From assembly GCA_963843975.1 (NCBI GenBank), contig CAWJMG010000003.1, positions 1,410,001 to 1,442,000 of the forward strand: a DNA stretch of 32,000 nt, given 5' to 3'. Position 1 is the stretch's first letter, and each line of letters starts with the position of its first letter. The position numbers and the translations under genes are program-made. The notes beneath the pieces were generated by a model. The model was not told the DNA's origin. It did no database searches and saw nothing but the letters and a program-made list of their open reading frames with translations. Source of the DNA: an uncultured Actinomycetes bacterium. Lineage in GTDB: Bacteria > Actinomycetota > Actinomycetes > S36-B12 > CAIYMF01. Shown here one piece after another: positions 2,604 through 28,222 of this stretch.

Positions 2604-4214
2604 CTACCTGCCGCGGCGCAGGAGCCCGAGCGCTCCGGCGTCGTCGACCACGACGGCGAGGTCGCCGTCCTCGTCGGTGCGGCCGACCACCGCCCCGACA
2701 TCCCGATAGGCCGCGACCGTCTCGGGGGCGGGGTGGCCGTAGTCGTTGTCGACCCCGACGCCGATCAGGGCGATACGCGGCCGGAACGATGTCGCCCAGG
2801 CCGCCGACTGGTAGCGCGAGCCGTGGTGCGGCACCTTCACGACGTCGACGGGCGTCACCGGCGTCTGCGCGAGCACGGCGTCCTGCGCCGCCTCCTCGAG
2901 GTCGCCGCCGAGGGCGAAGGTGACGCCGTCGACCTCGGCGAGCACGGTCACGCTCGCGTTGTTGGCGTCGGAGCCCTCGCCGCGGATGAACCGCGTCGGC
3001 CACACCACCCGCAGGTGGACCGACCCGATCCGCCACTCGTCGCCGGGGGACGCCGTCCGCATCGACGCACCGGAGTCCGTCAGCCAACGCAGCACGCGCC
3101 GCTCCTCCCCCGGCGGGTCGTCGAGCGGTGACGTGACCACGACGCCCACGGCCCGGCCGCGCAGGACGCCGGGCAGCCCCTCGACGTGGTCGGCGTGGAA
3201 GTGCGTGAGGAGCACGAGCGGCACGCGGGTGACCCCGAGCCGCCGCAGGCACCGGTCGACCAGGGACGGATCGGGCCCCGTGTCGACGACGACCGCCTCG
3301 CTCGTCGCCACCCGGAGGACGAGGGAGTCGCCCTGGCCGACGTCGCACATCACGGCCCGCCAGCCCGACGGCGGCCAGGCGAGAGCACCGGGCACGACGA
3401 CGGGGACGGGCGCCACCGCGACGACCACGCAGGCCACGGCGCCGACGACCAGCGAGGTGCGCAGCACCGGCCCGCCGTGGCGCCGGGCGAGCCACGCACC
3501 CGTCGCCGCCAGCGCGGTGACGACGGTGATCGACGCCGCCCCGGCCCAGCCCGACGGCCACGGCAGGCTGCCCGCGAGCACCGAGGTCTGGCGGGCGACG
3601 ATCGCGATCCACGAGACCGCCCACCCAGCAGGCAACGCGACGACCGAGGCCGCCGGTGCCGACACCAGTCCCACGACCGCTGCGACCAGTCCGAGGGACG
3701 TCGCCGGCGCGACCGCGGGCTCGGCGAGAAGGTTGGCGACGACGCCGCCCACCGGCACTCCCCCGCCGATGCCGACCACGAGCGGTGCGACCGCGAGCTG
3801 GGCAGCCGCGCTCACCACCACGAGCGCACCGACCGCCCCGCGAGTGCGCTGCCACCACGTGCCTTCCACGAGCCCCGGCCCGGCCCGGGCGGCCACGAGG
3901 ATCAGCGCGGCCGTGGCGGCCACCGACATCGCGAAGCCGACCGAGAGGGCGAGGAACGGGTCGAGCAGCACGAGTGAGGCGACGGCGACGGCCAGCGCGT
4001 CGAGCGGCTTCACCCGCAGGTCGAGCAGCAGCACCACCAGGACGACCGCGGCCATCGCGGCGGCCCGGAGCACCGACGGCTGCGGCCGCGCGACCACGAC
4101 GTACGCCGCCACCGCCAGACCCACGACGAGCAGCTGCGCGACGCCGCGCCGCAGGCCCACGAGGCGGCCGAGCACGACGACGACGGCGACCACCACTGCG
4201 ACGTTGCCACCGCT
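2604..4214 (-). CDS. comEC: ComEC/Rec2 C-terminal fragment (membrane competence domain remainder plus metallo-beta-lactamase domain), separated from its 5' part by the inserted element
   Basis: The minus frame is open from 4226 and reads SGGNVAVVVAVVVVLGRL..., followed by many TM helices. It continues ...MCDVGQGDSLVL...LLTHFHADHVEGL...VVKVPHHGSRYQ... (MBL fold). The first in-frame start is GTG 4196 and there is no plausible promoter or RBS. It continues the frame of the fragment at 13913-14707 across the shared core. Confidence 0.9.
   Translation of the reverse strand, partial: SGGNVAVVVAVVVVLGRLVGLRRGVAQLLVVGLAVAAYVVVARPQPSVLRAAAMAAVVLVVLLLDLRVKPLDALAVAVASLVLLDPFLALSVGFAMSVAATAALILVAARAGPGLVEGTWWQRTRGAVGALVVVSAAAQLAVAPLVVGIGGGVPVGGVVANLLAEPAVAPATSLGLVAAVVGLVSAPAASVVALPAGWAVSWIAIVARQTSVLAGSLPWPSGWAGAASITVVTALAATGAWLARRHGGPVLRTSLVVGAVACVVVAVAPVPVVVPGALAWPPSGWRAVMCDVGQGDSLVLRVATSEAVVVDTGPDPSLVDRCLRRLGVTRVPLVLLTHFHADHVEGLPGVLRGRAVGVVVTSPLDDPPGEERRVLRWLTDSGASMRTASPGDEWRIGSVHLRVVWPTRFIRGEGSDANNASVTVLAEVDGVTFALGGDLEEAAQDAVLAQTPVTPVDVVKVPHHGSRYQSAAWATSFRPRIALIGVGVDNDYGHPAPETVAAYRDVGAVVGRTDEDGDLAVVVDDAGALGLLRRGR
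4204..4214. repeat. attL core (TTGCCACCGCT)
   Basis: The same 11-mer, with one A/G difference, recurs at 13926-13936. On the minus strand both copies encode the S-G-G-N codons of comEC. Confidence 0.8.
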
Positions 4215-4233
4215 AATTGTGCATAGTTAGGGT
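4204..4233 (+). promoter_or_regulatory. Candidate integrase promoter overlapping the att core (TTGCCA, 18 nt spacer, TAGGGT)
   Basis: The -35-like TTGCCA (4204-4209) is the left half of the att core. The TANNNT-type -10, TAGGGT, is at 4228-4233. The ATG at 4240 lies 7 nt after the -10, which suggests a leaderless transcript. Confidence 0.35.
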
Positions 4234-4239
4234 GTGCAG

Positions 4240-5628
4240 ATGCGAGCCATCACCTACGCCAGGAAGTCGAACACCGACACGCGCAACCCCGGCAAGAGTG
4301 TCCGAGACCAGCAGCGCGAGGCACGCACCGAAGTCGAACGCCGCGGCTGGACCCTCATCGACGAGCTGAAGGACGACGGCATCGGAGCAAGCCGCCACAG
4401 CCGTAAGCGCGAGCGCCCCGGCTTCGACGCGCTTCTCGACCTCATCGCCACGCGCAAGGTCGATGCAGTGGTGCTGCCTGAGCAGAGCCGCGCCACCCGT
4501 CGCTTATCGATCCTCGGCGCCCTGCTCGAGGAGTGCGCCGACGCCGGAGTGCTCCTCGTGATCGACGGCCGCGAGATGGATCCGAGCAACGCCGGTGACC
4601 TCCTACAGCTCGGCGTGCAAGGCGCCGTCGACGTCGCCGAGGTCGAGCGCACCCGCGAGCGGGTCGAGCGCGGGATGCGCGGATCAGCCGCAGCAGGCAG
4701 GCCCCACGGGCGCCCCGTGTTCGGGTACACGCGCATCTACTCGCCCTCGAGCCGCGAGCTGCTGCGCGTGGACGTCCAGCCGCAGCAGGCGGCAATCGTG
4801 CGTCGCATCGCGGAACACCTCCTCACCGGTGGCACGGTCCGCAGCATCACCCTGGCGCTGAACGCCGAGGGCGTCCCGAATCCGACCGGTCGCGCGTGGC
4901 ACCCGTCGAGCGTGCGACGCATGATCGTGTCGCCGACGTACGCCGGGCGCAGGGTGCACCGCGGGGCAGTCGTCGGCGACGGTGACTGGCCCGCGATCCT
5001 CACCCTCGACGAGCACCTGGCGCTCGTTGCGGCCATGACCGCGCCCGGACGAGCCTCCAAGCGCCCCAGCGTGCGCAAGCACTTGTGCAGCGGGCTCGCG
5101 CGGTGCAGCGAGTGCGAAGGCCCTCTGCGCGTCGTCCTCGACCGTCGACGCCCGACCTACGCCTGCGCGACACCGGGGTGCTACCGAGTGACCGTCGGGA
5201 AGGAGTCTCTGGACGCCTTCGTGAGCGAGGCCCTCCGGGCTCGGCTCGCGCGTCCGGACGTCGTCGCCGCGCTCGGCCGCGGAGACATCGCAACGGTGCA
5301 GGCCGCACGGGACGCGCTCGACGACCTCGACGCACGCCGCGCGGACGTGCTCGCGATGCTCGCGGACGGCACGCTGCGCCGCGCCGAGGCAACCCCGATC
5401 CTGAAGAGCATCGACGCCGAGCGTCGCGACGCCGACGCGCGCGCCCTCGCCGCCGTCGGCTCCCGCGAGCTCCTCGATCTCGACGTCAACAGGCTCGACG
5501 CTCCGACGCTCGCGCGCGTCGCCCCCCTTGTCCTGTCACGTGTCGTCGTCCGACGATCGGCGCAGGTTCGTGGGCACAACAGGTTCGATGCGTCGCGTGT
5601 GACGTTCGAATGGATCGGCGCGGACTGA
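4240..5628 (+). CDS. Large serine recombinase (integrase)
   Basis: The N-terminus MRAITYARKSNTD carries the YxRxS catalytic-serine context of the resolvase domain. A recombinase domain and a Cys-rich zinc ribbon follow (CSGLARCSECEGPL...YACATPGCY), then a coiled-coil tail. An alternative GTG start is at 4234. Confidence 0.9.
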   Translation: MRAITYARKSNTDTRNPGKSVRDQQREARTEVERRGWTLIDELKDDGIGASRHSRKRERPGFDALLDLIATRKVDAVVLPEQSRATRRLSILGALLEECADAGVLLVIDGREMDPSNAGDLLQLGVQGAVDVAEVERTRERVERGMRGSAAAGRPHGRPVFGYTRIYSPSSRELLRVDVQPQQAAIVRRIAEHLLTGGTVRSITLALNAEGVPNPTGRAWHPSSVRRMIVSPTYAGRRVHRGAVVGDGDWPAILTLDEHLALVAAMTAPGRASKRPSVRKHLCSGLARCSECEGPLRVVLDRRRPTYACATPGCYRVTVGKESLDAFVSEALRARLARPDVVAALGRGDIATVQAARDALDDLDARRADVLAMLADGTLRRAEATPILKSIDAERRDADARALAAVGSRELLDLDVNRLDAPTLARVAPLVLSRVVVRRSAQVRGHNRFDASRVTFEWIGAD

Positions 5629-5642
5629 CGACACGCCGTCGC

Positions 5643-5672
5643 TTGACTTGCCCGGTTTGCGCGACCTACGTT
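5643..5672 (+). promoter_or_regulatory. Candidate sigma-70-type promoter for the xis-rep operon (TTGACT, 18 nt spacer, TACGTT)
   Basis: The hexamers were read directly at 5643-5648 and 5667-5672. They lie in the 265-nt gap after int and upstream of the co-directional coupled genes 5894-7496. Confidence 0.35.
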
Positions 5673-5818
5673 CGTAACAGGCGATGACCAGCAGCCGCAA
5701 GCCGAAGCGAGCCTTTCGGCGGTTGATGTAGCCAACCAGATGCAGTTGCACGTCGGGAAAGACCATCCCGCCCGGACAGGCTCGGGGCGCTTCAGCGGAT
5801 GGCGAGCACCCGGCAGTC

Positions 5819-5876
5819 GAATCCCTCTGGATTCCGCACTGCCTGGCGATCTCAACCGACAAGCGAAGCGGAATCC
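5819..5876. promoter_or_regulatory. GAATCC/GGATTC inverted-repeat set (possible operator or 5'-UTR structure) upstream of the Xis-like gene
   Basis: GAATCC at 5819-5824 and GGATTC at 5829-5834 form a 6-bp hairpin. TGGATTCCGC (5828-5837) is inverted relative to GCGGAATCC (5868-5876). CCCCGTTCGGGG follows immediately before the RBS. Confidence 0.3.
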
Positions 5877-5893
5877 CCGTTCGGGGAGACCGA

Positions 5894-6073
5894 ATGCCGC
5901 TCCTACCCTCGATCCAAGATCACACGCTCTACGTTCGCGACGTCGTGGAGCTCCTCAACGTCGACGCCACAACGGTTCGCCGCTGGGTCGCCGACGGGAA
6001 GCTGCCCGCCGTACGCGTTGGCAATGTGCTGCGATTCCGCGCAGTAGACGTCGACGCTCTCGTGAAGCGATGA
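5894..6073 (+). CDS. Excisionase-family helix-turn-helix DNA-binding protein (candidate recombination directionality factor)
   Basis: This 59-aa ORF is below the ORF-track cutoff. It reads MPLLPSIQDHTLYVRDVVELLNVDATTVRRWVADGKLPAVRVGNVLRFRAVDVDALVKR, the classic Xis/MerR-type HTH_17 pattern. The RBS GGGGAG lies 6 nt upstream, and its stop overlaps the next start (ATGA). Confidence 0.8.
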   Translation: MPLLPSIQDHTLYVRDVVELLNVDATTVRRWVADGKLPAVRVGNVLRFRAVDVDALVKR

Positions 6074-6189
6074 CTGCCCTCACACCGGACGCCCTCGAGT
6101 TGGCGCGCCAGGCTGCCGACGAGGCCCCGGAGCTCAGCGCTGCGCAGGCCGCGCGAGTCGTCGCCGTGCTCTGCGAGTCATCGAGGTGA
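6070..6189 (+). CDS. Small hypothetical protein (39 aa), translationally coupled on both sides
   Basis: MTALTPDALELARQAADEAPELSAAQAARVVAVLCESSR. Its ATG overlaps the xis stop, and its TGA overlaps the GTG of the next gene (GTGA). No family was recognised. Confidence 0.45.
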   Translation: MTALTPDALELARQAADEAPELSAAQAARVVAVLCESSR

Positions 6190-7496
6190 GCGACTCAACG
6201 CCCATCCCCCGCGACGAGCTTGAGGTCGCCGTGGCGTGCCTGTCGGAGTCGGACCTGCGGGCACTCATGGGCGACGCCGTACGCGCAAACCTCCTCGAGC
6301 TACGGCGAGACCCGCGGGGCCTTGTCGGAGTCGGCACCTACAGCGAGCGCGCCGACAGGCGGAAGGCCGCGGAGGCCGTCGCCGACGAGCGCCGTCGCCA
6401 GCAGGCCCGCGAACAGGTCCGAAGGGAACGCGCAGACGCCGCCTTCAGGGCTCCAAGTGCCCTCGAAGTCCTCTCGAACGCCCCCGATCACGAGACCGAC
6501 GACGTGCACCGCGTCGAAGGCTTCCTGCCCCTCGACGGAAGCGCGACCGTCATCGGCGCGGCTAAGGTTGGAAAGTCCACGCTGCTCGTCGAACTCGTGC
6601 GCTGCCTCGTCGACGGCGAGCCGTTCCTTGACGCCTACCCGGTGAAGCAGGTTGACGACGGCCGCGTGGTCGTGCTCAACCTCGAGGTGAGCCCGCGCAC
6701 CTACCGGCGGTGGCTGCGCCGTGCCGGCATCCGCAACGCCCACGCGGTCGGGGTGCTGCACATGCGCGGTACGGGTTTCGAGATCGAGTCGCCCGCAGCC
6801 CGAGCCTGGCTGGTCGACCAGCTCCGGCAGGCGTCAGCCCGCGTTCTCATCGTTGACCCGTTCTCGGCCATTTACCGGGGGCAGTCCGACGTCGACAACC
6901 GGGAGGTGCGCGGTTGGCTCGACGAGCTGTCAGCCGTGGCGCTCGAGGCCGGGGTGCGGGAGGTGGTGCTCGGCGTGCACGCGGGGCGGGACAAGAGCCG
7001 CAGCCGCGGCGCGTCCGCGCTCGACGACTGGCCGGACGCCGTGTGGACGATCACCCGCGACGCGAGCACCAACCTGCGCTCAATCGCCGTCGACGGCCGC
7101 CACGACCGCAAGGCCGGCGACGTCGTGCTCACGTTCGACGAGTCGACCCACAGAGTCGCCCTCGACGTCCGCGCCTCCGGGATCACACCAGCACAGCGGA
7201 AGGCGCACGAGGCCGACCGACGGCGCGCAGAGCGCTACAGCGCCGACCGTGCCGACGAGATGCAGCTGCTCCACCTGGTCAGAGAGCGCCCCGGCATGTC
7301 GGCGCGGGAGCTGCGCTCCGAGCTTCGTTCGCGGCTAAGTAGTGGCGCGGAGCGTGCTGGGCAGGCGATTGACCGCTGCGTGGTTGAAGGCGACGTGGCG
7401 AAGGTGAAGGTGGGAAGGTCGACGGTCCTCGAGCTGACTGACAAGGGTCGTGCCCGGATCGAGCTCCCTTCGCTCATCGCAGGGGCGGCGCAGTGA
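6186..7496 (+). CDS. RecA-like P-loop ATPase (AAA_25 / RepA-type) with C-terminal winged-helix; probable replication initiator/helicase of the element
   Basis: Walker A is GAAKVGKST and the Walker B-like strand is ARVLIVDPFSAIY. The layout resembles plasmid RepA/DnaB-like AAA_25 proteins common on integrative elements. The C-terminus LLHLVRERPGMSARELRSEL...VKVGRSTVLELTDKGRARI looks like a wHTH. Confidence 0.7.
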   Translation: MSDSTPIPRDELEVAVACLSESDLRALMGDAVRANLLELRRDPRGLVGVGTYSERADRRKAAEAVADERRRQQAREQVRRERADAAFRAPSALEVLSNAPDHETDDVHRVEGFLPLDGSATVIGAAKVGKSTLLVELVRCLVDGEPFLDAYPVKQVDDGRVVVLNLEVSPRTYRRWLRRAGIRNAHAVGVLHMRGTGFEIESPAARAWLVDQLRQASARVLIVDPFSAIYRGQSDVDNREVRGWLDELSAVALEAGVREVVLGVHAGRDKSRSRGASALDDWPDAVWTITRDASTNLRSIAVDGRHDRKAGDVVLTFDESTHRVALDVRASGITPAQRKAHEADRRRAERYSADRADEMQLLHLVRERPGMSARELRSELRSRLSSGAERAGQAIDRCVVEGDVAKVKVGRSTVLELTDKGRARIELPSLIAGAAQ

Positions 7497-7501
7497 TCTG
7501 C

Positions 7502-7684
7502 GTGCCTTGGCAGTCGACCGCGCCGGCGAGGTCTGGGCCGCCTCGGCCGCATCGCCATGACTGTGCCTCGGTGCCTTCGGTGCCTCCCTATAAGCGTGCG
7601 AGGCACGCATATCGACGTGCGTCCGTGCCTTGGTGCCTCGGTGGCTTCCAGCGGGACCAAGTCCCACCGAGGCACACAAGGCAC
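7502..7684. repeat. Iteron-like cluster of GTGCCT(Y)GG motifs (candidate origin of replication)
   Basis: Direct GTGCCT copies lie at 7502, 7563, 7571, 7580, 7625 and 7633, with variant GTGGCT at 7641. Inverted AGGCAC copies lie at 7601, 7670 and 7679. Two tandem sets with 8-9 nt spacing flank a more AT-rich stretch (CTATAAGCG...CATATCGAC). The cluster starts immediately 3' of the ATPase gene. Confidence 0.55.
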
Positions 7685-7725
7685 ACCGGAAGACCAACGA
7701 ACCCACCCACACTGAGGAGCGAACG

Positions 7726-7998
7726 ATGACCGACTTCTACGACGGCCCTACTCGCGAGCAGGCGGAGGCCGCGCACGCCAATCTCGCCGCCCAGCTCATC
7801 GTCGCCTGGGATGCCGCACGACACCTCGCCGACGACCACGAGGCGCGTCCGATGCGCGACCTCCTCGAGACTGCGCCGGCAGACGCTGCTTGGGCGCTCG
7901 GCGTGCTGCTCGGACACGCGATCGAGTACGGCGCGGACCGCGCCCTGGACGAGGCCCTCGAGAGTCTGCGGCTCGACGTCGAGGCGGTGGCCTCGTGA
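7726..7998 (+). CDS. Hypothetical protein (90 aa)
   Basis: The ATG at 7726 is preceded by the RBS GAGGAG. The product is acidic and helical (MTDFYDGPTREQAEAAHANLAAQLIVAWD...). Its stop overlaps the next start (GTGA). No family was recognised. Confidence 0.6.
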   Translation: MTDFYDGPTREQAEAAHANLAAQLIVAWDAARHLADDHEARPMRDLLETAPADAAWALGVLLGHAIEYGADRALDEALESLRLDVEAVAS

Positions 7999-8315
7999 CG
8001 CCGCCTCGCGCCGCTCAGAGCGCCCAACGGCCCGCCTGGGTTCCTCCTGTTCCGAGCCCCACCTCCGTGGAGCCTGATGCCCTCTTCGCCCTCCTGCGGC
8101 GCCTCGTCGAGGCGAGCGAGCGGCAGGCGGAGGCGGCGGAACGGCACACCTACCTGCTCGCGGCAATCTTGACCGCGATCGACGACGGCACCGCAGCCAG
8201 GATCGAGGGTCGGGCATCGGTGGCCGTGCGGGATGCCGAGGACACGCGCTTCAACCTCGGCCGCCTCACCGACCAAGCCGAGCGGCTCGCCGCCGTCGAC
8301 CGGGAAGATGGGTAG
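7995..8315 (+). CDS. Hypothetical protein (106 aa), Pro-rich N-terminus plus predicted coiled coil
   Basis: The GTG at 7995 is coupled to the upstream stop. The sequence ...LFALLRRLVEASERQAEAAERHTYLLAAILTAIDDG... looks coiled-coil. Its stop overlaps the start of the connector-like gene by 1 nt. No family was recognised. Confidence 0.55.
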   Translation: MTPPRAAQSAQRPAWVPPVPSPTSVEPDALFALLRRLVEASERQAEAAERHTYLLAAILTAIDDGTAARIEGRASVAVRDAEDTRFNLGRLTDQAERLAAVDREDG

Positions 8316-8782
8316 TGGCGCCGCCCTACGCCGAGGTCGGCGATCTCGAGACACGGTTGGGTCGCGAGCTCCGCGACACCGAGCTTGATCGCGCAGGGAC
8401 GCTCCTCGAGACGGTCTCCGTCTACATCGACCTTCACCTCGAAACCTGCGTCGACACGATCGCCACCGACTACCCGCAGGTGCTCGTCGACGTCGTGTGC
8501 GGCGCAGTGCTGCGTGAGCTCGCTCGCGACCCCAGCCGTGACCCCACCGCCGTCAGCGTGCAGCTCGGCGACACCGCGGTGGCCTACCGCTATGACAAGC
8601 CTCGGGGCTCCGCATTGGGGCCGCTCACCGAGGACGAGGTCGCCACCCTGCGACGGGCGTGTGGGCAGCAGTCGACGCGAGGCGTCTCAAGCGTCCCACT
8701 GGCGTCGACGTTGCAAGCGATGCCTAACGTCGAGGACGACGAGACTGCTGGCTGGCGGCCGATGTACCCCAACCTCCCCTAA
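8315..8782 (+). CDS. Phage head-tail connector/adaptor-like protein (Gp19/Gp15/Gp42-type)
   Basis: The N-terminus (V)APPYAEVGDLETRLGRELRDTELDRAGTLLETVSVYIDLHL matches the characteristic opening of actinophage head-to-tail adaptor proteins (YATVEDLEARLGR-LTD-E--RA--LL-DAS). This is recognition-based only. Confidence 0.5.
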   Translation: MAPPYAEVGDLETRLGRELRDTELDRAGTLLETVSVYIDLHLETCVDTIATDYPQVLVDVVCGAVLRELARDPSRDPTAVSVQLGDTAVAYRYDKPRGSALGPLTEDEVATLRRACGQQSTRGVSSVPLASTLQAMPNVEDDETAGWRPMYPNLP

Positions 8783-8789
8783 CCACCGT

Positions 8790-8824
8790 GGCCCGGCGTG
8801 CACACGAGCGCGGCACGCCGGGCC
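8790..8824 (+). terminator. Stem-loop after the connector-like gene
   Basis: A perfect 12-bp stem, GGCCCGGCGTGC / GCACGCCGGGCC, encloses an 11-nt loop and begins 8 nt after the stop. There is no U-tract, which is common in high-GC actinobacteria. Confidence 0.5.
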
Positions 8825-9074
8825 GCGGTCCTGCCTTACTCCCTCGCAGGCTCGGGTTAACCTCGAAGCGGACAACGGATCCGGTGAGCTGGCCGACACG
8901 GCGAGCATCGGTGACGGGCTGGCAGCCGACAAGGTGCAGCACCCACGTGAGGCGCGGACACCGCGCGGCATGCCCACAGCGTCGGGGTGCCGCAGCGAGC
9001 CGGCAGCGCTCGTGACACACCACCGATTCTCCGGGTGTGCACGCGCGCGCCCGCATCCCACTTCAGGAGTACCC

Positions 9075-9881
9075 ATGTCCGTCACCCGTGACAGCTTCAA
9101 CGGGGAGCCGTTCCCCACCGCCGTCGTGCAGAAGATCCTCAACGACTCCCTCGAGGACACCCCTCTGCTCGGCAACATCACCGTCGAGCGCACCAACCGC
9201 GAGAGCAAGACCTTCCTCGCCGCCGACCCGTCCGGCTTCGACTGGCGAGCCGAGGGCGCCGAGCTCCCAACCGTCGCGCTCAACGACGACTCCGCCGTGT
9301 TCGCGCCCGCGAAGCTCGCCGGCCTCATCGAGATCACCAACGAGGCGATCGACGACAGCGAGTTCAGCATCACCGGCGCCATCACCAACGCGATCCGCGA
9401 CTCGATGCTCGTCAAGGCCGAGCGCGACACCCTCTACGCGCCCGCCGTCCCGAACGCCGCGGCACCCACGCCCGTCGTGCCCGGACTCGGCGCGGCCGTT
9501 TCCGGCGACTCGCTGCGGCTCGCTGCTATCGCCGCGTGCGGCGAGATCCTCGGCGCAGGTGGCAGGCCCGACCGCATCTTCATCTCCCCTGACCTGTGGG
9601 TGGCGGAGATGCAGGGCCGCGCGCTCGACGGTGGCAGCCTCGTCGACCCATTCACGGACCTCGGCCTGCGCACCGTCATCGTGCCCAACCTCGACGCCGA
9701 GGACGGCATCGTGGCGGACAGCAGCCGTGTCTACGCGGTGTGGCGCAAGGACGCGTCGATCGAGATGAGCGACACCCCTGCGTGGAGCCGCGACGCGTGG
9801 TCGTTCCGCGTGAAGGCCCGTCTGGTGCTCGCCATCCCGCAGGTCGCGAAGGCCGCACGGCTGCTCGCCGTCACCCCCTAG
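9075..9881 (+). CDS. HK97-family phage major capsid protein (short form, 268 aa)
   Basis: The ATG at 9075 follows the RBS AGGAG. The pattern ...VVQKILNDSLEDTPLLGNITVERTNRESKTFLAADPSGFDWRAEGAELPTVALNDDSAVFAPAKLAGLIEITNEAIDDSEFSITGAITNAIRDSMLVKAERDTLY...IFISPDLW...VIVPNL...VYAVWRKDASIEMS...RVKARL matches the Phage_capsid (HK97) sequence pattern. Confidence 0.8.
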   Translation: MSVTRDSFNGEPFPTAVVQKILNDSLEDTPLLGNITVERTNRESKTFLAADPSGFDWRAEGAELPTVALNDDSAVFAPAKLAGLIEITNEAIDDSEFSITGAITNAIRDSMLVKAERDTLYAPAVPNAAAPTPVVPGLGAAVSGDSLRLAAIAACGEILGAGGRPDRIFISPDLWVAEMQGRALDGGSLVDPFTDLGLRTVIVPNLDAEDGIVADSSRVYAVWRKDASIEMSDTPAWSRDAWSFRVKARLVLAIPQVAKAARLLAVTP

Positions 9882-10074
9882 CAAGGCAGCTCGGCTCGTG
9901 TCCTGGTCGTCACGAGGCGAGAGCTCGAGGCCGCACGGTCAGCGGCGCGACGAGAGCCCGCGGACGCTTCAGGGACGTCGCGGCGGGCAACCCATGACAA
10001 TGCTTGGTGCGAAGGATGACCGTCGGTACGGTCGGCGGGTGGCAACTCATGCGCAGTCGGATTCAGACTCGAAT

Positions 10075-10893
10075 ATGAACCGCGTCTCAGGGCTGACCGA
10101 CTGGTTGCGCAGTAACGCGCCGTGGCTTGCTGGCCTTGTCTGGGCGGCAGTGGTCGCCGTTCGAGTTGCCATTCTTGCCGACGGGGACTGGGGCAAGGCA
10201 CAGGCAATTGCTCAGGTTGCGGGGCTCGTTGGCCTCGCCCTGTCTACGGCAGTCGCTGTGCTCCCGTTGTTCCTGGCCATGGTGGCCTTTCTTTGCCTGC
10301 TCTGGTTCCGTCGCCGCCGCTTGCTGTCGATGCAGCTTTTGACTGCGGTGCTACTCGTTTCCCTCCTCGTCTTGGCCATGCCAGCGATACAAGCCGTGAT
10401 CTTGTCGCTAACGGCCTGTGGAGCGGGGCTCATGTGGTGGGCCGTCAAGCGGGAAGACAAAGCCGGGCCCGGAACGGAGTCGGAGTCAACGTCAGAGGAG
10501 GCTGACGAATCGGAGGCAATGGGATCGCCGGCACAGGACCCGCCGCTGTCCCCGGAGATCGCTGTGCTGAGCGACCCGGTTGGACGCCTGCTCTGGTACA
10601 CCCTGACGGCGACGTTTGTGGTGGTGACCTTCTCGTTCCTTGCTCCGTGGGGGGCCACAGAAAGAATCACGTTCACAGATGCCAAAGGGAAGCAGACCTT
10701 AGCCGTGGGCTACGTGATCCCGAGCAGCGACTTCTACCTCGTGGTCCCGAAGTCAGATGATCAAATGTTCTACGTGCGCACGGACAATATCGTTCAACGA
10801 GACCTCTGCAGCACAGCCAAGTCAGGTCGATCCTTGGAATTGTCAATCGTGGCCCTTGTGGATGGCCGGACGCCGCTGCCGACCTGCGATTGA
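10075..10893 (+). CDS. Multi-pass membrane protein of unknown function (about 6 TM helices, an acidic linker, and a ~70-aa C-terminal soluble domain)
   Basis: Part of ORF 9898..10893. MNRVSGLTDWLRSNAPWLAGLVWAAVVAV... is the most natural N-terminus; alternative ATGs lie at 9994 and 10000. GC is visibly lower and A/T third positions are more frequent than in the flanks. No family was recognised. Confidence 0.6.
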   Translation: MNRVSGLTDWLRSNAPWLAGLVWAAVVAVRVAILADGDWGKAQAIAQVAGLVGLALSTAVAVLPLFLAMVAFLCLLWFRRRRLLSMQLLTAVLLVSLLVLAMPAIQAVILSLTACGAGLMWWAVKREDKAGPGTESESTSEEADESEAMGSPAQDPPLSPEIAVLSDPVGRLLWYTLTATFVVVTFSFLAPWGATERITFTDAKGKQTLAVGYVIPSSDFYLVVPKSDDQMFYVRTDNIVQRDLCSTAKSGRSLELSIVALVDGRTPLPTCD

Positions 10894-10958
10894 GGCACGG
10901 GGGGGGGTCTCCCGAGCTTCCACCTGCTCCCCGCAACGGGGTCTCTGCACGTAGTTGG

Positions 10959-11729
10959 CTACGGGTTTTGACCTTTGGCGGCCGCGCTCGGCCCTTCGGC
11001 CAACTCGGCTGATGGTTTCAAGGCCGACACCTCTGCCATGAGCTGCTCAATCAACTCACGCTGCGCCCGCATCTCGGTCAGCAGCTCGTCCTCACCCTGC
11101 CGCGTTCGCTGTACGAACCATGCCGCTACCGCTGCGGTGATGACGCCGAGCATGGAGATACCGACCAGCATCAAGGCGAAGGCAACCACCCTTCCCACTG
11201 GCGTGACGGGAAAGACGTCGCCGTACCCAACGGTGGTGACCGTCGCACCTGCCCACCACAACGCATCACCGATCGTTGAAACGTGAGTGCCCGGGGCGTC
11301 TCGCTCGGTGTCGAGCATCGCCAGCGCAGCAACGAGCAGTAGAAGCGCGGTGGCGGCGACGGCAGCTGCGACGGTGCGCCCGATCGCGAAGCGACCTCCG
11401 CGCGAGATTACGTAGTTTGCGGCAGTGAACACGCGCAGAACGCGCAGCGGGCGCAGCATCGGCAGCGCCACCAGCAGGAAGTCGATGGGGTGCCGCATGA
11501 GGTACTGACCTGGGCTGCCAGAGAGATACGCGCGCAAACCCAAGTCACACACGAACACGACCCAGACGGCGAAACTGAGCAACTCGTCGCCCAATGCCAG
11601 ACCGGGCGGAAGCGAGGGCCAGACGATAGGCAGGGCGTACAGAACAAGGAATGCGCCGGCGAGGATCAACAAGGGGATCGTTGTTCGGTGCTCATAGCGA
11701 TCGAGACGTTCGCGAGCAGGCGACGACAT
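10959..11729 (-). CDS. Voltage-gated-type (6TM) potassium channel
   Basis: The selectivity filter reads TTVGYGD. An S4-like helix has Arg at every third residue (LRPLRVLRVFTAANYVISRGGR), and the C-terminus is a coiled coil. The start is taken at MSSPARERLDRYEH (ATG 11729, with RBS GTGGAG upstream) rather than the ORF-track start at 11828. Confidence 0.85.
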   Translation of the reverse strand: MSSPARERLDRYEHRTTIPLLILAGAFLVLYALPIVWPSLPPGLALGDELLSFAVWVVFVCDLGLRAYLSGSPGQYLMRHPIDFLLVALPMLRPLRVLRVFTAANYVISRGGRFAIGRTVAAAVAATALLLLVAALAMLDTERDAPGTHVSTIGDALWWAGATVTTVGYGDVFPVTPVGRVVAFALMLVGISMLGVITAAVAAWFVQRTRQGEDELLTEMRAQRELIEQLMAEVSALKPSAELAEGPSAAAKGQNP

Positions 11730-11872
11730 CTCCACATCCGGACCGTACCCAGCATCACCCAGGCGGGACCCGCGCCACGCTGGGTACGTGCTCCGGCAAC
11801 GGGCGCCCCATCTCGCTACGGTGGCCACATCATCGCCGCGAGAAGGCGGCTAACGGGGAACGGGGCACTTCC

Positions 11873-12754
11873 ATGAAACGTGGCTTGACGCTTGGTGTCG
11901 CAGCTCTGGCGACTTGCCTGAGTGCGATGACCATTGCCGGGCCGGCCGCGCAGGCCACGCCGACCCAGCCCACGGCCGCGATCGCGGTCACGCCGCGGGC
12001 ACTCTTGGCGAAGTTGACGGTCGCTGCCGAGGTGGGCTTCTCCTCTTACGCTCGGGAGAAGTTCCAGTACCCGACCGACGCCAACTCCGACTGCCAGAAC
12101 ACCCGCGCCGAGGTTCTCTTGCAGGAGACCCGAACGAAGGCTTCCTTCACCTCGTCGTCGCGCTGCACGGTGCAGTACGGAACCTGGCTCTCCTATTACG
12201 ACGGGCTCACGATCAAGAAGGCCTCGAGTCTTCAGATCGATCACTTGGTCCCGCTCTACGAGGCATGGACGTCCGGCGCTAGGAAGTGGAATGTCGCCAC
12301 GCGCAAGGCGTATGCCAACGATCTCTCCTACGGACCCACGCTCGTCGCTGTCTCCGCGTCGACGAACCTGTCCAAGGGTTCGAAGGACCCCGCGCAGTGG
12401 CTACCATCTCTGGCCGCCGCCCGTTGCAAGTACGCGATCCAGTGGATGCAGGTGAAGTACCGGTGGCGCTTGACTGTTGACTCGTCTGAGAAGTCGGCCC
12501 TTCTGTCCATCCTGTCCGGCGCTTGCGGCACCAAGGCCGTTGTGCTGCCAGCACGCGCCTCGGTGAGCTACACCACCACGACGTCGGGTTCAGGCGGTAG
12601 CACTGGGGGCGGTGGCAACAGCAGCGGCACCGACCCGCGTTACGGGACTTGCACGGAGGCCAAGAGCCACGGCCTAGGGCCCTACTACCGAGGCACCGAT
12701 CCCGAGTACTACTGGTACAACGACCGAGACAACGACGGCATCGTCTGTGAATGA
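11873..12754 (+). CDS. Secreted HNH/DUF1524-type nuclease with C-terminal Excalibur calcium-binding domain
   Basis: The signal peptide is MKRGLTLGVAALATCLSAMTIAGPAAQA. The DUF1524 core reads LQIDHLVPLYEAWTSGARKW...ANDL...NLSKGSKDPAQWLP...CKY, followed by a Gly/Ser linker. The Excalibur motif is DPRYGTCTEAKSHGLGPYYRGTDPEYYWYNDRDNDGIVCE. Confidence 0.8.
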   Translation: MKRGLTLGVAALATCLSAMTIAGPAAQATPTQPTAAIAVTPRALLAKLTVAAEVGFSSYAREKFQYPTDANSDCQNTRAEVLLQETRTKASFTSSSRCTVQYGTWLSYYDGLTIKKASSLQIDHLVPLYEAWTSGARKWNVATRKAYANDLSYGPTLVAVSASTNLSKGSKDPAQWLPSLAAARCKYAIQWMQVKYRWRLTVDSSEKSALLSILSGACGTKAVVLPARASVSYTTTTSGSGGSTGGGGNSSGTDPRYGTCTEAKSHGLGPYYRGTDPEYYWYNDRDNDGIVCE

Positions 12755-12900
12755 AATGGCTGCCCGGTTGTCGTCCGTGTAGGTGACGGCTTGTGCAGGC
12801 CGGGCGCCCTCGACCCGATGATTGAAGGGTCGTTGACGGGCGCGTGGCAACGGCAGGGGAACGTCGACCAGCAGACGACCGACGGGCTGACTGTCTGGAC

Positions 12901-12958
12901 GACACCTACGACGAGTCGGCCCCGGCGAATTCGCCGGGGCCGACTCGTCGTAGGTGTC
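12901..12958. terminator. 58-bp perfect palindrome (29-bp arms, no loop, centred on GAATTC); probable bidirectional terminator between the convergent nuclease and doc genes
   Basis: GACACCTACGACGAGTCGGCCCCGGCGAA | TTCGCCGGGGCCGACTCGTCGTAGGTGTC was verified base by base. It overlaps the doc stop codon by 2 nt. Confidence 0.6.
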
Positions 12959-13388
12959 ACTCGTGCTGAGATCCCTCAGCCAGTCGGACATCGACCTCTT
13001 GGTCCTCCGTCAGGCCCGGGACGGCCACGCACGCCGACTTCAGCACCTCGGCGAGTTGCGTGACGTCCAGTTCATGTCGAGCCACGCGCATCGCCACCTC
13101 GTAGACCTCGGAGTCCGACAGCAGAAGGGTGTGAGCATTCAGCGCGAAGAAGACTCGGGTCGCCGTGAACGCCGTGCGCTTGTTTCCCTCCAAAAAGGGC
13201 TGATGGCCGTCGATGCTCGTCCACAAGGCCGCAGCCTTGTCATACAGGGTTGGGTACGCGTCCTCACCACCTACGGTCTGCTGCGGCCTGGCGACCGCCG
13301 CTTCGAGACCTGAGGGGTCTCGAAGCGGCGCATCGTCCAGATCGTCGTGAATGCGGACCACGTCAGCGACGGTGAGGTAGTGCGTCAT
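12957..13388 (-). CDS. doc: Fic/Doc-family toxin (death-on-curing type)
   Basis: The start is MTHYLTVADVVRIHDD (ATG 13388). The Doc signature HQPFLEGNKRTAF (HxFx[D/E]GNKR) is present. The product is 143 aa and lies 19 nt downstream of a small RHH-like gene. Confidence 0.85.
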   Translation of the reverse strand: MTHYLTVADVVRIHDDLDDAPLRDPSGLEAAVARPQQTVGGEDAYPTLYDKAAALWTSIDGHQPFLEGNKRTAFTATRVFFALNAHTLLLSDSEVYEVAMRVARHELDVTQLAEVLKSACVAVPGLTEDQEVDVRLAEGSQHE

Positions 13389-13407
13389 CGTCTTGCTCCA
13401 GTTGGCT

Positions 13408-13644
13408 CTAGCCCCTGAGCTTGTCGAGGGCGACCACGTGGCGCTCCTGCGTCTCCGTGACCACAGCTCCGATGAGTTCCGCGCGGCCGGGACCATCAAG
13501 AAACTCGCGGAGCAGGTTCGTGATGGTCTCGTTCGCGCTACGGCGCGTGTGGAACGAGTACGTGCGGAGTGCCTCGTGCAGATCGGGATCAAGCCGAACG
13601 GTTACGGCTTGACGCTGGATGTCGTGCGTGTGGACTTCGTTCAT
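13408..13644 (-). CDS. Antitoxin (ribbon-helix-helix / Phd-like) partnered with Doc
   Basis: The ATG at 13644 is preceded by the RBS GGAGGA. The 78-aa product reads MNEVHTHDIQRQAVTVRLDPDLHEALRTYSFHTRRSANETITNLLREFL..., a typical RHH beta-strand followed by helices. It sits directly upstream of doc. Confidence 0.7.
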   Translation of the reverse strand: MNEVHTHDIQRQAVTVRLDPDLHEALRTYSFHTRRSANETITNLLREFLDGPGRAELIGAVVTETQERHVVALDKLRG

Positions 13645-13671
13645 TGCCGTCCTCCGGTGGTCGAGGGGAGG

Positions 13672-13722
13672 ACGACGCAGCGGGGAAGACTGCTGTGTCA
13701 CTGGAATCGTTGGCTGCGTCGT
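13672..13722. promoter_or_regulatory. Inverted repeat ACGACGCAGC / GCTGCGTCGT upstream of the antitoxin gene (possible TA operator)
   Basis: The 10-bp arms lie at 13672-13681 and 13713-13722, 28-78 nt upstream of the antitoxin start codon on the minus strand. Confidence 0.3.
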
Positions 13723-13775
13723 TTGTGAGAGGTTTGGGATACCAAGCGAGGATGCTTTTTGGCGACGAGTTGCTG

Positions 13776-13827
13776 GCTAGGTTTCTGATTGCTCGCGGTT
13801 TGCTAGGTCTCTGAAGTTCTCGCGGTT
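13776..13827. repeat. Tandem imperfect ~25-bp direct repeat in the AT-richer right arm of the element
   Basis: GCTAGGTTTCTGATTGCTCGCGGTT (13776-13800) is followed, after one intervening base (13801), by GCTAGGTCTCTGAAGTTCTCGCGGTT (13802-13827). Confidence 0.5.
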
Positions 13828-13912
13828 GTTGGAGTTGGCCACCTCCGTGACGCCATGATGGCATGCTATCAAGATCATTACAACCCAATCTCGAAGTTCT
13901 CCCCTGCCCCTC

Positions 13913-14707
13913 CTAGCAATGCGCATTGCCGCCGCTCACCGCCGTCAGGTGGGCGAGGCCCGAGTCGCGCATGGCCTGTGCGAGCTCGGGGCTCTGCGCG
14001 GACGTGTCGCCGACGACCAGGCCGGGCAGGAGGCCGCGGACGTCCGACGACCGGTCTGAGACGGATGCCCGCAGCGACTCGCGGACGGCACCCGCACCGA
14101 CCTGGACCGGCGGCGGGCCGCGCACGACCTCCACCGTGTCGGCCATGAGCGTGGCAGCTCGGCCACGACGTGGATCCGCGGGAAGGAGCCGGCCGGTGGC
14201 GTGCAGTCCGGTGCCGGGCAGCAGCGAGGCGACGCCTGCGGACGCGTCTCCCGATGTGATCACCTGCACCGGCAGGTCGAGCTCGTACGTCTCGCCCGTA
14301 ACGGTGGCCGTCAGCAGCGCGGCCTCGAACGTCCACGCGTCGTCCATGCGTCGCGAGCCCGACGTACGGCCGTCGCGCACGCGCGGGTCGGACGTGGTCA
14401 CCAGCTCGGCCCGGACGAACGAGTGCGCGCCCGCCGCTGCCGCGAGCGGGCCGTCGAGCAGCGGCGCGACCCGCCACGCGGAGACGGACGCCGACAGGAG
14501 GACGAGCAGCCCGACGGCCGTGACGTCGACGGCTGTGACGGACGTGCGGCGGGAGGCCAGGGCGAGGGCTGCCGCGACGACGAGCGCGAGCGCCATCGCG
14601 AGCCCTGCGGGCGGGAGCGGGATCGACGGCGCCAGCCCGACCACAGCCGCGGCCGAGCCCCAGACGGCGACAGCCGCGATCGAGGCCCTCGTGGGTCGCG
14701 CGGTCAC
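13913..14707 (-). CDS. comEC: ComEC/Rec2 N-terminal fragment (truncated by the insertion; the last 3 codons, AHC, and the stop are element-derived)
   Basis: The GTG at 14707 overlaps the comEA stop (GTGA). TM helices and an OB-like region follow. The fragment ends ...LPGLVVGDTSAQSPELAQAMRDSGLAHLTAVSGGN-AHC*, so it breaks inside the conserved HL-AVSG-N competence-domain motif. Confidence 0.88.
   Translation of the reverse strand: MTARPTRASIAAVAVWGSAAAVVGLAPSIPLPPAGLAMALALVVAAALALASRRTSVTAVDVTAVGLLVLLSASVSAWRVAPLLDGPLAAAAGAHSFVRAELVTTSDPRVRDGRTSGSRRMDDAWTFEAALLTATVTGETYELDLPVQVITSGDASAGVASLLPGTGLHATGRLLPADPRRGRAATLMADTVEVVRGPPPVQVGAGAVRESLRASVSDRSSDVRGLLPGLVVGDTSAQSPELAQAMRDSGLAHLTAVSGGNAHC
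13926..13936. repeat. attR core (TTGCCGCCGCT)
   Basis: This is the second copy of the 11-nt core. The element-side sequence just before it, GCAATGCGCATTGC, is itself a 14-bp palindrome. Confidence 0.8.
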
Positions 14708-15447
14708 ACGGTCACCAGCGGCGCGAGCCGCTCGAAGGTGCGGTCGCCGATCCCCGACACCTCGCGCAGCTGGTCGACCGAGGCGAAGCGGCCGTTCTGC
14801 GTGCGCCAGTCGATGATGCGGCCGGCCATCACCGGACCCACCCCGGGCAGCGTGTCGAGGTCGTCGACGGTCGCGGTGTTGAGGTTCACGGGCCCGGCCG
14901 GTGCTCCGCTCCCGGAGCCGCTCGCTACCGGCGGCGCGGTCGCCGCGTCGTGCGCGACGTCGACCTGCTCGCCGTCCACGAGCAGGCGGGCGAGGTTGAG
15001 GCCGCCCGAGCTGCCGCCTTTGCTCAGCCCGCCCGCGGCCTCGATCGCATCGGCCACCCGGGATCCGGGCGGCAGCCGCACCAGCCCGGGACGCCGCACC
15101 TCCCCCACCACGTGCACGACGAGATCGGGCTGCGCGCTCGGCGAGGCCGAGCTGCCCGGCCGCCCGGCGAGCGAGCCCGACACCACCGGCATCGGCGTGC
15201 CGGGCACGAGCGCGACCGGAGTGGGGGCACCGCCGGTGACCGTACGCAGCAGCAGCCACGCGGCGAGCGCCGTGACGCCGACGGCGACGAGCACCGGGCG
15301 CGCCGCCATAGGCAGCACCCAGCGAGGTGCGCCCGGGGACGGACCGGTGCCGTCGTCGTCGTGCGGCGCTGCCCCGCCCGCGGCGAGCGCTCGGAGCCGC
15401 TCACGGACTGCGTCCGGGTCGGGGCGGGGTCGAGGGCGGGGCAGCAC
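14704..15447 (-). CDS. comEA: ComEA-like DNA receptor (SLBB plus helix-hairpin-helix)
   Basis: An N-terminal TM helix is followed by VVHVVGEVRRPGLVRLPPGSRVADAIEAAGG (SLBB). The C-terminus reads VNLNTATVDDLDTLPGVGPVMAGRIIDWRTQNGRFASVDQLREVSGIGDRTFERL (HhH). The start is uncertain; an internal ATG at 15309 is possible. Confidence 0.85.
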   Translation of the reverse strand: MLPRPRPRPDPDAVRERLRALAAGGAAPHDDDGTGPSPGAPRWVLPMAARPVLVAVGVTALAAWLLLRTVTGGAPTPVALVPGTPMPVVSGSLAGRPGSSASPSAQPDLVVHVVGEVRRPGLVRLPPGSRVADAIEAAGGLSKGGSSGGLNLARLLVDGEQVDVAHDAATAPPVASGSGSGAPAGPVNLNTATVDDLDTLPGVGPVMAGRIIDWRTQNGRFASVDQLREVSGIGDRTFERLAPLVTV

Positions 15448-28213: not shown

Positions 28214-28222
28214 CGTAGTAAG

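Follow-up and report, generated by a model that had tools for sequence, protein, structure and literature searches.

A 32,000-nucleotide stretch of DNA from an uncultured Actinomycetes bacterium (contig CAWJMG010000003.1, positions 1,410,001 to 1,442,000; hereafter the window) carries an inserted element at positions 4215-13925. This element encodes an integrase, a replication protein, a head-tail adaptor and a short major capsid protein, and is probably a phage satellite. The GC content of the window is approximately 72%, and it falls to 62-70% from about 4.2 to 13.9 kb. LeuS, HolA and other housekeeping proteins belong to 90%-identity clusters shared with Longivirga aurantiaca (Sporichthyaceae, Actinomycetota) and with ‘Candidatus Nanopelagicales’ metagenome-assembled genomes (MAGs); as judged from its proteins, the host is an uncultured Sporichthyaceae-like actinobacterium.

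The low-GC segment lies between two open reading frames (ORFs) on the minus strand. The one at 2604-4196 is the C-terminal part of ComEC (Pfam Competence profile positions 35-265 and a metallo-beta-lactamase domain), and the one at 13913-15259 terminates in Competence profile positions 1-31 (Pfam). As two parts of comEC flank the segment, the segment splits this gene, which encodes the DNA-uptake channel. The interruption falls at the codons for ...AVSGGN..., and the host parts of comEC occupy 2604-4214 and 13926-15259. Three close relatives (L016, L017 and L018, approximately 85% nucleotide identity) keep the synteny leuS, degV, plsY, comEA, comEC and holA and carry an intact comEC of 794 aa. 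By blastn, positions 1-6302 of L016 correspond to window 20157-13926 and positions 6292-7900 to window 4214-2606, with an overlap of 11 bp. Each junction, 4204-4214 and 13926-13936, carries a copy of this 11-bp core, AGCGGYGGCAA, with one mismatch between the copies, and rejoining the host flanks restored ...LAHLTAVSGGNVAVVV.... The element therefore has precise ends and an empty site in relatives, and its 9,711 bp match exactly the 9.7 kb given in an earlier reading made from the letters alone (the sequence-only reading). In the circular form, the attP junction is predicted to be CAATTAGCGGTGGCAA joined to TGCGCATTGCTAGG. All seven element proteins looked up were the sole members of their own 90%-identity clusters, whereas the clusters of the host proteins looked up had 6-8 members, so the element is strain-specific.

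Genes were called with a frame plot of the GC content at third codon positions (GC3) and with an independent gene call on an identical Logan contig. Both methods agreed on the plus-strand genes at 5894-6073, 6186-7496, 7726-7998, 8067-8315, 8315-8782 and 9075-9881. From the left junction to the capsid gene, and at the right junction, the element is organized as follows.

4204-4214: left att core, TTGCCACCGCT on the plus strand and AGCGGTGGCAA in comEC orientation; junction with the comEC C-terminal part, from the L016 empty-site alignment.
4234-5628, plus strand: large serine integrase of 464 aa, for which 4240 is an alternative ATG start; Pfam Resolvase 6e-19, Recombinase 1.7e-14 and Zn_ribbon_recom; PHROG integrase 8.1e-78.
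5894-6073, plus strand: HTH_17 excisionase-type protein, 59 aa; Pfam HTH_17 3.6e-12, TIGR01764 excisionase 43 bits (cutoff 28.8), PHROG excisionase families.
6070-6189, plus strand: ORF of 39 aa that overlaps the genes on either side and was called on the identical Logan contig; no family match.
6186-7496, plus strand: AAA_25 (RecA/DnaB-like) replication ATPase, 436 aa; Pfam AAA_25 4.2e-25, weak matches to PHROG primase/helicase families at about 1e-6.
7502-7690, no strand assigned: iteron cluster with direct and inverted copies of GTGCCTYG, between the AAA_25 gene and p90.
7726-7998, plus strand: p90, a small acidic all-helical protein with GC3 frame support; no family match.
8067-8315 (start possibly 7995), plus strand: p82, a predicted two-helix hairpin protein whose stop overlaps the adaptor start by 1 nt; no family match.
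8315-8782, plus strand: head-tail adaptor (Ad1 type), 155 aa; PHROG 137 at 4.5e-15, Pfam Gp19 at 2.5e-3 and 18.7 bits against a cutoff of 22.
8785-8829, plus strand: 17-bp GC-rich, terminator-like hairpin without a U tract; an inverted repeat, 94% complementary, just 3' of the adaptor stop.
8830-9074, plus strand: non-coding leader of the capsid gene, 245 nt; no coding signal, AGGAG 8 nt before the ATG, in-frame extension without a PHROG match.
9075-9881, plus strand: short HK97-type major capsid protein, 268 aa, without a delta domain; Pfam, PHROG, TIGR01554 and PDB profile matches.
13926-13936: right att core, TTGCCGCCGCT; junction with the comEC N-terminal part, from the L016 empty-site alignment.

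The gene at 9075-9881 had been proposed to encode a short HK97-fold capsid protein, and every profile search bore this out. The protein matched Pfam Phage_capsid_4 (PF25209; 6.4e-11, 43.5 bits with a cutoff of 27, residues 19-247) and Phage_capsid (PF05065; 1e-7, 32.1 bits with a cutoff of 24.2), PHROG 10 (major head protein; 1.5e-13) and TIGR01554 (major_cap_HK97; 45.4 bits with a cutoff of 27.5). A profile built from 42 members of its family matched capsid proteins of actinophages with solved structures, 8ec8 (6e-17) followed by others, and also HK97 gp5 (3e-10). There was no encapsulin among the PDB matches of this profile and no match to Pfam Linocin_M18, and the neighbouring genes are integrase, replication and adaptor genes. 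Thus, with scores above the curated thresholds and both the A and P domains, the protein belongs to the HK97-fold major capsid proteins and not to the encapsulins. Residue 1 aligns at position 104 of TIGR01554, which is close to the cleavage point of HK97 gp5 (about residue 103/104); for this reason we consider that the protein lacks the N-terminal delta (scaffolding) domain of gp5, and it is therefore of the type that needs a separate scaffold. A longer, N-terminally extended capsid ORF (8385-9881) was also considered. It was rejected because coding bias is lacking upstream of 9075, PHROG gave no match for the added part, and the ATG at 9075, with its AGGAG, is where all homologs start.

A non-coding gap of 293 nt, which includes the 17-bp hairpin, separates the adaptor and capsid genes, and the minimum free energy fold of 8783-9074 gave z = -3.28. 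Because the hairpin and the 245-nt leader with its AGGAG part the capsid gene from the adaptor gene, the capsid gene looks like a separate transcription unit, and the leader possibly holds a separate (late?) promoter or a packaging site. Long gaps also lie 5' of the capsid gene in several relatives of the element; comparison of the leader with one of them (L001) revealed no convincing sequence conservation.

Apart from the capsid and the adaptor, no virion gene was recognized. Pfam, PHROG and TIGR searches of the called genes, and a search with the long alternative-frame and antisense ORFs, gave no profile match for terminase, portal, protease, tape-measure, tail or lysin/lysis functions, upholding the earlier claim that terminase, portal, protease, tape-measure and endolysin genes are lacking on either strand.

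The sequence-only reading had described the product of 8315-8782 as a Gp19-type adaptor. The adaptor identity held, through PHROG 137 and through a siphovirus homolog, P0163, whose gene lies between the capsid and head-closure genes as expected of an Ad1 adaptor; the Pfam Gp19 score by itself is below the cutoff. A profile search of the PDB with the adaptor gave no match. Ad1 proteins act on the portal vertex, joining the portal to the tail, and the portal and the tail must therefore come from elsewhere. Among 5.8 billion proteins the adaptor has three homologs. One of them, P0163, is 69% identical in amino acids over residues 3-136, and is encoded by L015, a 13.8-kb contig (Logan SRR29476930, 70.6% GC) that represents the structural module of an uncultured siphovirus. 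At the DNA level, only the adaptor gene of the element resembles L015 (75.6% over 344 nt). The gene order of L015 is a small ORF (weak Terminase_7 match), the large terminase subunit (TerL), a portal of the SPP1 type, a protein of 267 aa, a scaffold (PHROG 1793, 4e-15), a 316-aa capsid (PHROG 10, 1.6e-47), the Ad1 adaptor P0163, the head-closure protein Hc1, a gp10-like protein, a tail terminator and the major tail protein. L015 also encodes a 686-aa protein matching PHROG 14065. Its portal is approximately 30% identical to those of Arthrobacter, Streptomyces and Mycobacterium siphoviruses, with a maximum of 33% in the phage collection, where L015 has no close relative. Through the shared adaptor, this uncultured actinobacterial siphovirus is a candidate helper lineage.

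The capsid proteins of the element and of L015 share 23% identity (E = 1e-3). L015-type phages have a separate scaffold and a capsid without a delta domain, an arrangement compatible with the satellite capsid. A near copy of a helper connector beside a foreign capsid is what one would expect of a satellite if it has to dock its heads onto the neck and tail of that phage. We infer a satellite-helper pairing with an L015-type phage. The order of the two genes in the element is adaptor then capsid; in the L015 head module it is capsid then adaptor. We also observed that the last approximately 19 residues of the adaptor (window 8740-8782, ...VEDDETAGWRPMYPNLP) are wholly unlike those of the phage copy P0163 and are common to a second homolog, P0162. 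If the C-terminal arm of Ad1 adaptors contacts the portal, the altered C-terminus could reflect a change of partner.

The capsid protein recurs in other genomes. A word-indexed search returned seven homologs, and an exhaustive profile search of 1.84 billion cluster representatives returned 1,242 matches, of which 257 reached E<1e-10 and 66 clusters reached E<1e-30. Full-length members are nearly all 265-300 aa long (about 270); ordinary capsid proteins of 375-407 aa scored far more weakly and aligned from about residue 100 onward. Nine genomic contexts of the short capsid were recovered. All are islands of 5-10 kb with an integrase (serine or tyrosine) and a replication gene, in none of which (0/9) were TerL, portal or tail genes found; three of the nine lie on host contigs of 24-193 kb. 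The gene orders seen around the short capsid were as follows.

L005, L006 and L007 (host contigs of 88-193 kb): serine recombinase, (Xis-like), AAA_25, 71-aa ORF, capsid.
L008: tyrosine integrase, 192-aa protein, HTH_17, 507-aa Rep, four small ORFs, capsid, WhiB.
L012 (MAG contig of 76 kb): tyrosine integrase, Mrr and capsid, in an island of approximately 8 kb.
L013: DUF3631 Rep, 72-aa protein, 191-aa protein, capsid, and further on a tyrosine integrase.
L014: serine recombinase, 70-aa protein, 799-aa Rep, 143-aa protein, 79-aa protein, capsid, GmrSD_C nuclease.
L001: small ORFs, then capsid.
L004: small ORFs, then capsid.
L009: capsid, with a serine-recombinase-like match downstream.
A JGI contig of 4.7 kb: small ORFs, capsid, then serine recombinase.

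All-against-all BLAST revealed that the capsid gene is the sole gene common to all contexts, which are otherwise a mosaic of integrases, replication genes and small ORFs. In the slot that separates the replication gene from the capsid gene, there is a head-scaffolding protein in L004 (PHROG 1793, 3.8e-11) and a small terminase subunit (TerS) in L008 (PHROG 34561, 1.5e-5). By its own terms, the sequence-only reading would have been refuted by relatives with collinear terminase, portal and tail genes; the nine contexts, all minimal islands, show the opposite. A tblastn search of 50,697 phage genomes with the capsid and the adaptor gave no match, scans of 2.9 million IMG/VR contigs with each of them found nothing, and scans of GTDB genome contigs with the capsid and AAA_25 alignments confirmed nothing; capsid alignments of wider range contained no sufficiently conserved stretch for such a scan. 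A description of this actinobacterial family with short capsids was not found in the literature.

The sequence-only reading had named an integration module and a P-loop ATPase accompanied by iterons, and both were confirmed by Pfam and PHROG matches, by the iteron statistics and by conservation in L005. The HTH_17 protein is likely the recombination directionality factor (RDF). The AAA_25 ATPase is 57% identical to its counterpart in L005. The window holds 13 exact matches to GTGCCTYG, seven of them inside 183 nt; 4.5 would be expected by chance in the whole window, and none of 100 shuffles reached 13. In L005, about six copies of a GTGCCTC core lie directly 3' of the AAA_25 gene. As both the motif and its position are conserved there, the cluster probably serves as an origin of replication or as a site to which Rep binds.

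In the integrated state, only approximately 20 nt separate the left att core from the integrase start codon (4214-4234), which leaves no room for a promoter on that side. In the circular form, the integrase gene would sit 3' of the AT-richer right end of the element (13700-13925), which contains a 26-nt tandem repeat (13776-13827, two copies). As the start codon is so close to the att core, integrase expression may depend on circularization. A scan for sigma-70 promoters returned no site, and a terminator scan gave a count not above chance.

The two small genes that precede the adaptor gene had been noted to sit where satellites usually place helper-interference or scaffolding functions. Their coding calls stand; the role was overstated, as AlphaFold2 (AF2), Foldseek and profile searches gave no assignable function. 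The second gene possibly starts at 8067 and not at about 7995 as first read. For p90, a homolog search returned only the protein itself, apart from a copy in L001 that is 56% identical. AF2 gave a model with four helices (predicted local distance difference test, pLDDT, 74.9), for which no fold match was obtained. The single-sequence AF2 model of p82 (pLDDT 82.6) is a confident hairpin of helices 3-35 and 40-81, and Foldseek returned generic hairpins and coiled coils only, none at E<=1e-3. A hairpin shape is compatible with small scaffold or size-determination proteins, and p82 is a candidate for such a factor.

Taken together, these observations make it reasonably probable that 4215-13925 is an integrative, self-replicating and helper-dependent phage satellite residing in comEC. 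The satellite interpretation of the sequence-only reading finds comparative support in the capsid and adaptor profiles, the discrete insertion, the recurrent islands and the link to a siphovirus adaptor, and all of its predictions that were open to test were borne out. Our model suggests that, when an L015-type helper siphovirus infects or is induced, the element would excise by means of its integrase and HTH_17 RDF, and that the excised element would replicate from the iteron origin. The capsid gene would be expressed from its separate transcription unit in a helper-dependent manner. Head assembly could then follow one of two routes. In the first, the satellite capsid would build a whole small shell on the helper portal, with a scaffold from the helper or of the p82 type, as in the Extracellular Prophage-Inducing Particles (EPIPs) and the phage-inducible chromosomal islands that form capsids (cfPICIs) discussed below. 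In the second, it would co-assemble as pentamers with the helper capsid, forcing the formation of small capsids as the Ccm protein of SaPIbov5 does. The helper terminase would package the element genome of approximately 10 kb, and the satellite adaptor, a near copy of that of the helper, would join the filled head to the helper head-closure proteins and tail.

Several observations weigh against this satellite model. TerS, Rpp, a Cpm homolog and a repressor were not detected among the element genes, nor was a cos or pac site or an Stl-like sensor or repressor identified in the element. For p82 and p90, AF2 and Foldseek speak neither for nor against a role as a scaffold or as a Sid-like or TerS-like protein. 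Conservation of the adaptor does not extend to the whole capsid family: L005 has none, and L001 has unrelated small genes. Because of this uneven presence, the role of the adaptor is taken to be lineage-specific. L015 comes from a different sample than the element, and its match with this host is putative. The remainder of the 32-kb window is housekeeping DNA, with no prophage and hence no helper prophage in it. The host is known solely from a metagenome-type assembly. Finally, several contigs carrying relatives are short, and the absence of further virion genes is firm only for L005, L006, L007, L012 and L013 and, in part, for L008 and L014.

The lack of a packaging signal and of TerS would also fit an island that uses its capsid and adaptor homologs as anti-phage decoys. 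Here, a dominant-negative capsid or a tail-blocking adaptor would poison siphovirus assembly, and the island would not be packaged, moving rarely or by other means. Capsid-interference genes of satellites, such as ccm, do suppress helpers, the adaptor closely mimics a phage protein, and the cargo is defence-like (a Doc toxin with similarity to the PADLOC system PDC-S23, a GmrSD_C nuclease and an ion channel). However, a static defence island would not need the full excision and replication module with conserved iterons found here. The TerS and scaffold genes of relatives point to packaging and assembly rather than to mere poisoning, capsid length is highly conserved across more than 60 clusters, and interference and transfer can coexist in known satellites. 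We therefore regard the decoy explanation as unlikely.

We give still less credence to an inert remnant of a full-length prophage whose terminase, portal, tail and lysis genes were deleted. The element is no decayed prophage but an intact, discrete and strain-specific insertion whose site is empty in relatives: it has precise att junctions and an undamaged integrase and RDF, and coding bias is kept in all ORFs. Such a remnant would account for the presence of just two virion genes and for the chromosomal, cargo-like genes of lower GC (62-65%) in the right half, and phiRv1 and phiRv2 were long called cryptic prophage-like elements. Nevertheless, the same minimal layout occurs in nine divergent relatives with different integrases and replication genes, which independent decay would not give. 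In addition, the adaptor-then-capsid order is unlike that of a phage head module such as L015, and the capsid clade is found neither in the 50,697 phage genomes nor in IMG/VR.

The size of the capsid protein (268 aa, as in encapsulins) and its lack of a delta domain could suggest a portal-less and tail-less ‘mini’ HK97 entity or an encapsulin-like compartment, whose shell would package the element or cargo proteins without any helper. A 2025 preprint on ‘twilight’ mini-genomes does consider a helper-independent lifestyle (bioRxiv 10.1101/2025.06.18.659913). Against this stand the head-tail adaptor encoded by the element, the family profile, which matches phage capsid proteins only and no encapsulin, and the lack of an adjacent cargo-type enzyme gene. 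Moreover, there is no known mechanism by which double-stranded DNA enters an HK97-type shell without a portal and a terminase, and we consider this explanation very improbable. The least credible alternative is an element resembling the actinomycete integrative and conjugative (or mobilizable) elements (AICEs) that acquired two phage-derived genes by chance: the order integrase, Xis and replication gene is also that of AICEs of the pSAM2 type, and AAA_25 proteins also occur on plasmids, but none of the element genes gave a match to a translocase of the FtsK/TraB type or to a Nudix/Spd or relaxase domain, and the universally conserved gene of the family is the capsid rather than a transfer gene.

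Within the satellite model, the comparison of relatives allows a broader proposal, which we put forward tentatively and hold to be possible rather than probable. The short (about 270 aa) capsid without a delta domain may mark a widespread family of satellites of actinobacteria that has so far had no name. Here the capsid would be the sole constant virion gene, and the slot between the replication and capsid genes would be an interchangeable helper-matching module, occupied by an adaptor in the element, TerS in L008, a scaffold in L004 and nothing recognizable in L005. If this is true, one satellite capsid together with the portal, scaffold and terminase of a helper suffices for satellite-sized heads. 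No known satellite that encodes a capsid would have so few virion genes, and the element described here would also claim helper tails through its helper-derived adaptor.

The right half of the element is cargo, and comprises the following genes.

9994-10893, plus strand: multi-pass membrane protein, 299 aa, with GC3 frame support and hydrophobic segments in its translation; no family match.
10959-11828, minus strand: ion-channel (K+ channel-like) protein; Pfam Ion_trans_2 9e-17.
11873-12754, plus strand: secreted GmrSD_C/DUF1524-type nuclease with an Excalibur domain; Pfam Excalibur 6.5e-13, GmrSD_C 1.4e-7.
12957-13701, minus strand: Doc/Fic toxin and an upstream small antitoxin resembling ribbon-helix-helix proteins; Pfam Fic 3e-13, TIGR01550 DOC_P1 39.4 bits (cutoff 38.65).

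The nuclease has a signal peptide and the Excalibur Ca-binding domain. Homologs lie downstream of the capsid gene in L014 (6783-7466, 41%) and L005 (12667-13941, 37%). As it recurs in three related serine-integrase elements, the nuclease may be a conserved accessory function rather than random cargo. When the cargo was analyzed with PADLOC, the Doc toxin alone resembled a candidate system, PDC-S23, and weakly; the Doc pair at the right end could serve stabilization of the element or abortive infection. The nuclease and Doc genes converge on a perfect palindrome of 58 nt (12901-12958, two 29-nt arms without a spacer). This palindrome probably acts as a terminator in both directions, and it is the source of the spurious miRNA-model matches that were the only result of an Rfam scan of the element.

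Since the insertion splits comEC, a host that carries the element has probably lost DNA uptake, except when excision occurs. Comparable cases are the serine-recombinase elements that interrupt developmental or competence genes and restore them on excision. A further oddity in comEC was observed in positions 1-550 of L019 (ENA ERZ27272703 contig), where only the last 211 nt of comEC align beside holA and the 236 nt before them, with which the contig begins, show no relation to this gene. This may be another insertion or rearrangement in comEC, or an assembly break; the related element L007 comes from the same sample. Elsewhere in the window, and unrelated to the element, a minus-strand ORF of 546 aa (26349-27989) carries RTX calcium-binding nonapeptide repeats (HemolysinCabind 8e-18) in a lower-GC region near a tRNA-Ala gene (28141-28214).

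Capsid-encoding satellites of actinobacteria are already an established kind, and the short-capsid family is recurrent and uncharacterized. The statement in the sequence-only reading that actinobacterial satellites are barely characterized is out of date, as phiRv1 and phiRv2 have been classed as putative satellites, and MulchRoom, MiniFlayer, Ando and the 11-kb EPIPs have been isolated. If our reading is correct, it extends capsid-encoding satellites to freshwater and soil actinobacteria of the Sporichthyales and Nanopelagicales types, and a simple marker, a capsid of about 270 aa without a delta domain beside integrase and replication genes, defines a family of at least 66 clusters. The natural series formed by its members (capsid only, or capsid with scaffold, with TerS or with adaptor) could reveal the minimum needed for redirecting head assembly, and the 69%-identical siphovirus adaptor offers a concrete satellite-helper pairing that is open to test.

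Among known systems, the phage-inducible chromosomal islands (PICIs) as defined by SatelliteFinder-type gene content share with the element an integrase, an AlpA/Xis-type regulator and a primase-replicase, which in the element are all on the plus strand, and its 9.7 kb fall within the 5-20 kb rule. PICIs also have helper-specific induction, through a master repressor that a helper protein relieves, and a packaging-hijack gene (TerS, Rpp, Ppi or CpmAB); in the element, no repressor and no TerS, Rpp or Cpm homolog was detected. The Staphylococcus aureus pathogenicity islands (SaPIs) have tyrosine integrases and an Stl repressor. SaPIbov5, a SaPI of the cos type, carries a copy of the helper cos site, and takes its portal, terminase and tails from the helper. 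Its sole capsid-type gene, like that of the element, encodes a divergent HK97-fold homolog (24% identity to the helper capsid, compared with 23% between the element and L015). However, the SaPIbov5 protein, Ccm, has a delta domain and forms only the pentamers of a mixed shell (PMC8569155), whereas the element capsid lacks this domain.

The ‘twilight’ mini HK97 genomes are contigs of 5-11.6 kb, mostly from the human gut, with capsids enriched in encapsulin domains (bioRxiv 10.1101/2025.06.18.659913). Like the element, they combine a capsid (with or without a scaffold), a replication gene, an integrase and an excisionase, and have no terminase, portal or tail genes. In contrast, tail-connector genes were not detected in them, while the element has a siphovirus-derived adaptor, a Phage_capsid-type capsid and an actinobacterial host.

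The cfPICIs and MulchRoom, MiniFlayer and Ando (Streptomyces) resemble the element in encoding their own capsid and head-tail connector and in taking tails from the helper. They differ in carrying a complete complement of genes for heads and packaging (portal, a protease or a scaffold, TerS, TerL and HNH) that the element lacks. With a capsid and one adaptor only, it falls outside the cfPICIs as defined by capsid, portal, protease, connectors, TerS, TerL and HNH. Furthermore, MulchRoom and MiniFlayer have no recognizable primase or replicase and Ando has no replication genes, whereas the element has one.

Closer in host and size are the EPIPs of Mycolicibacterium aichiense, which have genomes of 11 kb, heads of 32-51 nm and a helper siphovirus prophage (bioRxiv 2025, PMC12822802). 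Like the element, they are actinobacterial and small (about 11 kb in EPIPs), and encode a serine integrase, an HTH (helix-turn-helix) protein, a head-to-tail adaptor and a major capsid protein; EPIPs have small capsids and depend on the helper, as is predicted for the element. By their published gene list, EPIPs have in addition TerS, a head-to-tail stopper, a scaffold and a tape-measure protein; no such gene was detected in the element. It thus falls outside the EPIPs, which in about 11 kb combine TerS, an adaptor, a stopper, a serine integrase, an HTH protein, a scaffold, a capsid and a tape-measure protein.

The phiRv1 and phiRv2 elements of Mycobacterium tuberculosis were identified in 2023 as putative PICI-type satellites by SatelliteFinder (PMC10085698). 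The analogy drawn to them in the sequence-only reading is apt in architecture. They are also of about 10 kb, with a serine integrase and a small HTH Xis-type RDF and without portal, tail and lysis genes, and their order is likewise integrase, xis, replication gene, small genes and then capsid as the last virion gene. Compared by published gene list, the element agrees with them in size, serine integrase with Xis, replication gene and distal capsid, and departs from them at the terminase-like gene and prohead protease beside the capsid. In the published annotation, phiRv1 has a primase and, upstream of the capsid, a terminase-like gene and a prohead protease. In contrast, the element encodes an ATPase of the AAA_25 family and an Ad1 adaptor; it lacks a protease, and its capsid, of 268 aa, has no delta domain. 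Its target is comEC, and the reported target of phiRv1 is the REP13E12 repeats. The element and its relatives could provide a comparative handle on the long-unexplained phiRv1 and phiRv2 of M. tuberculosis.

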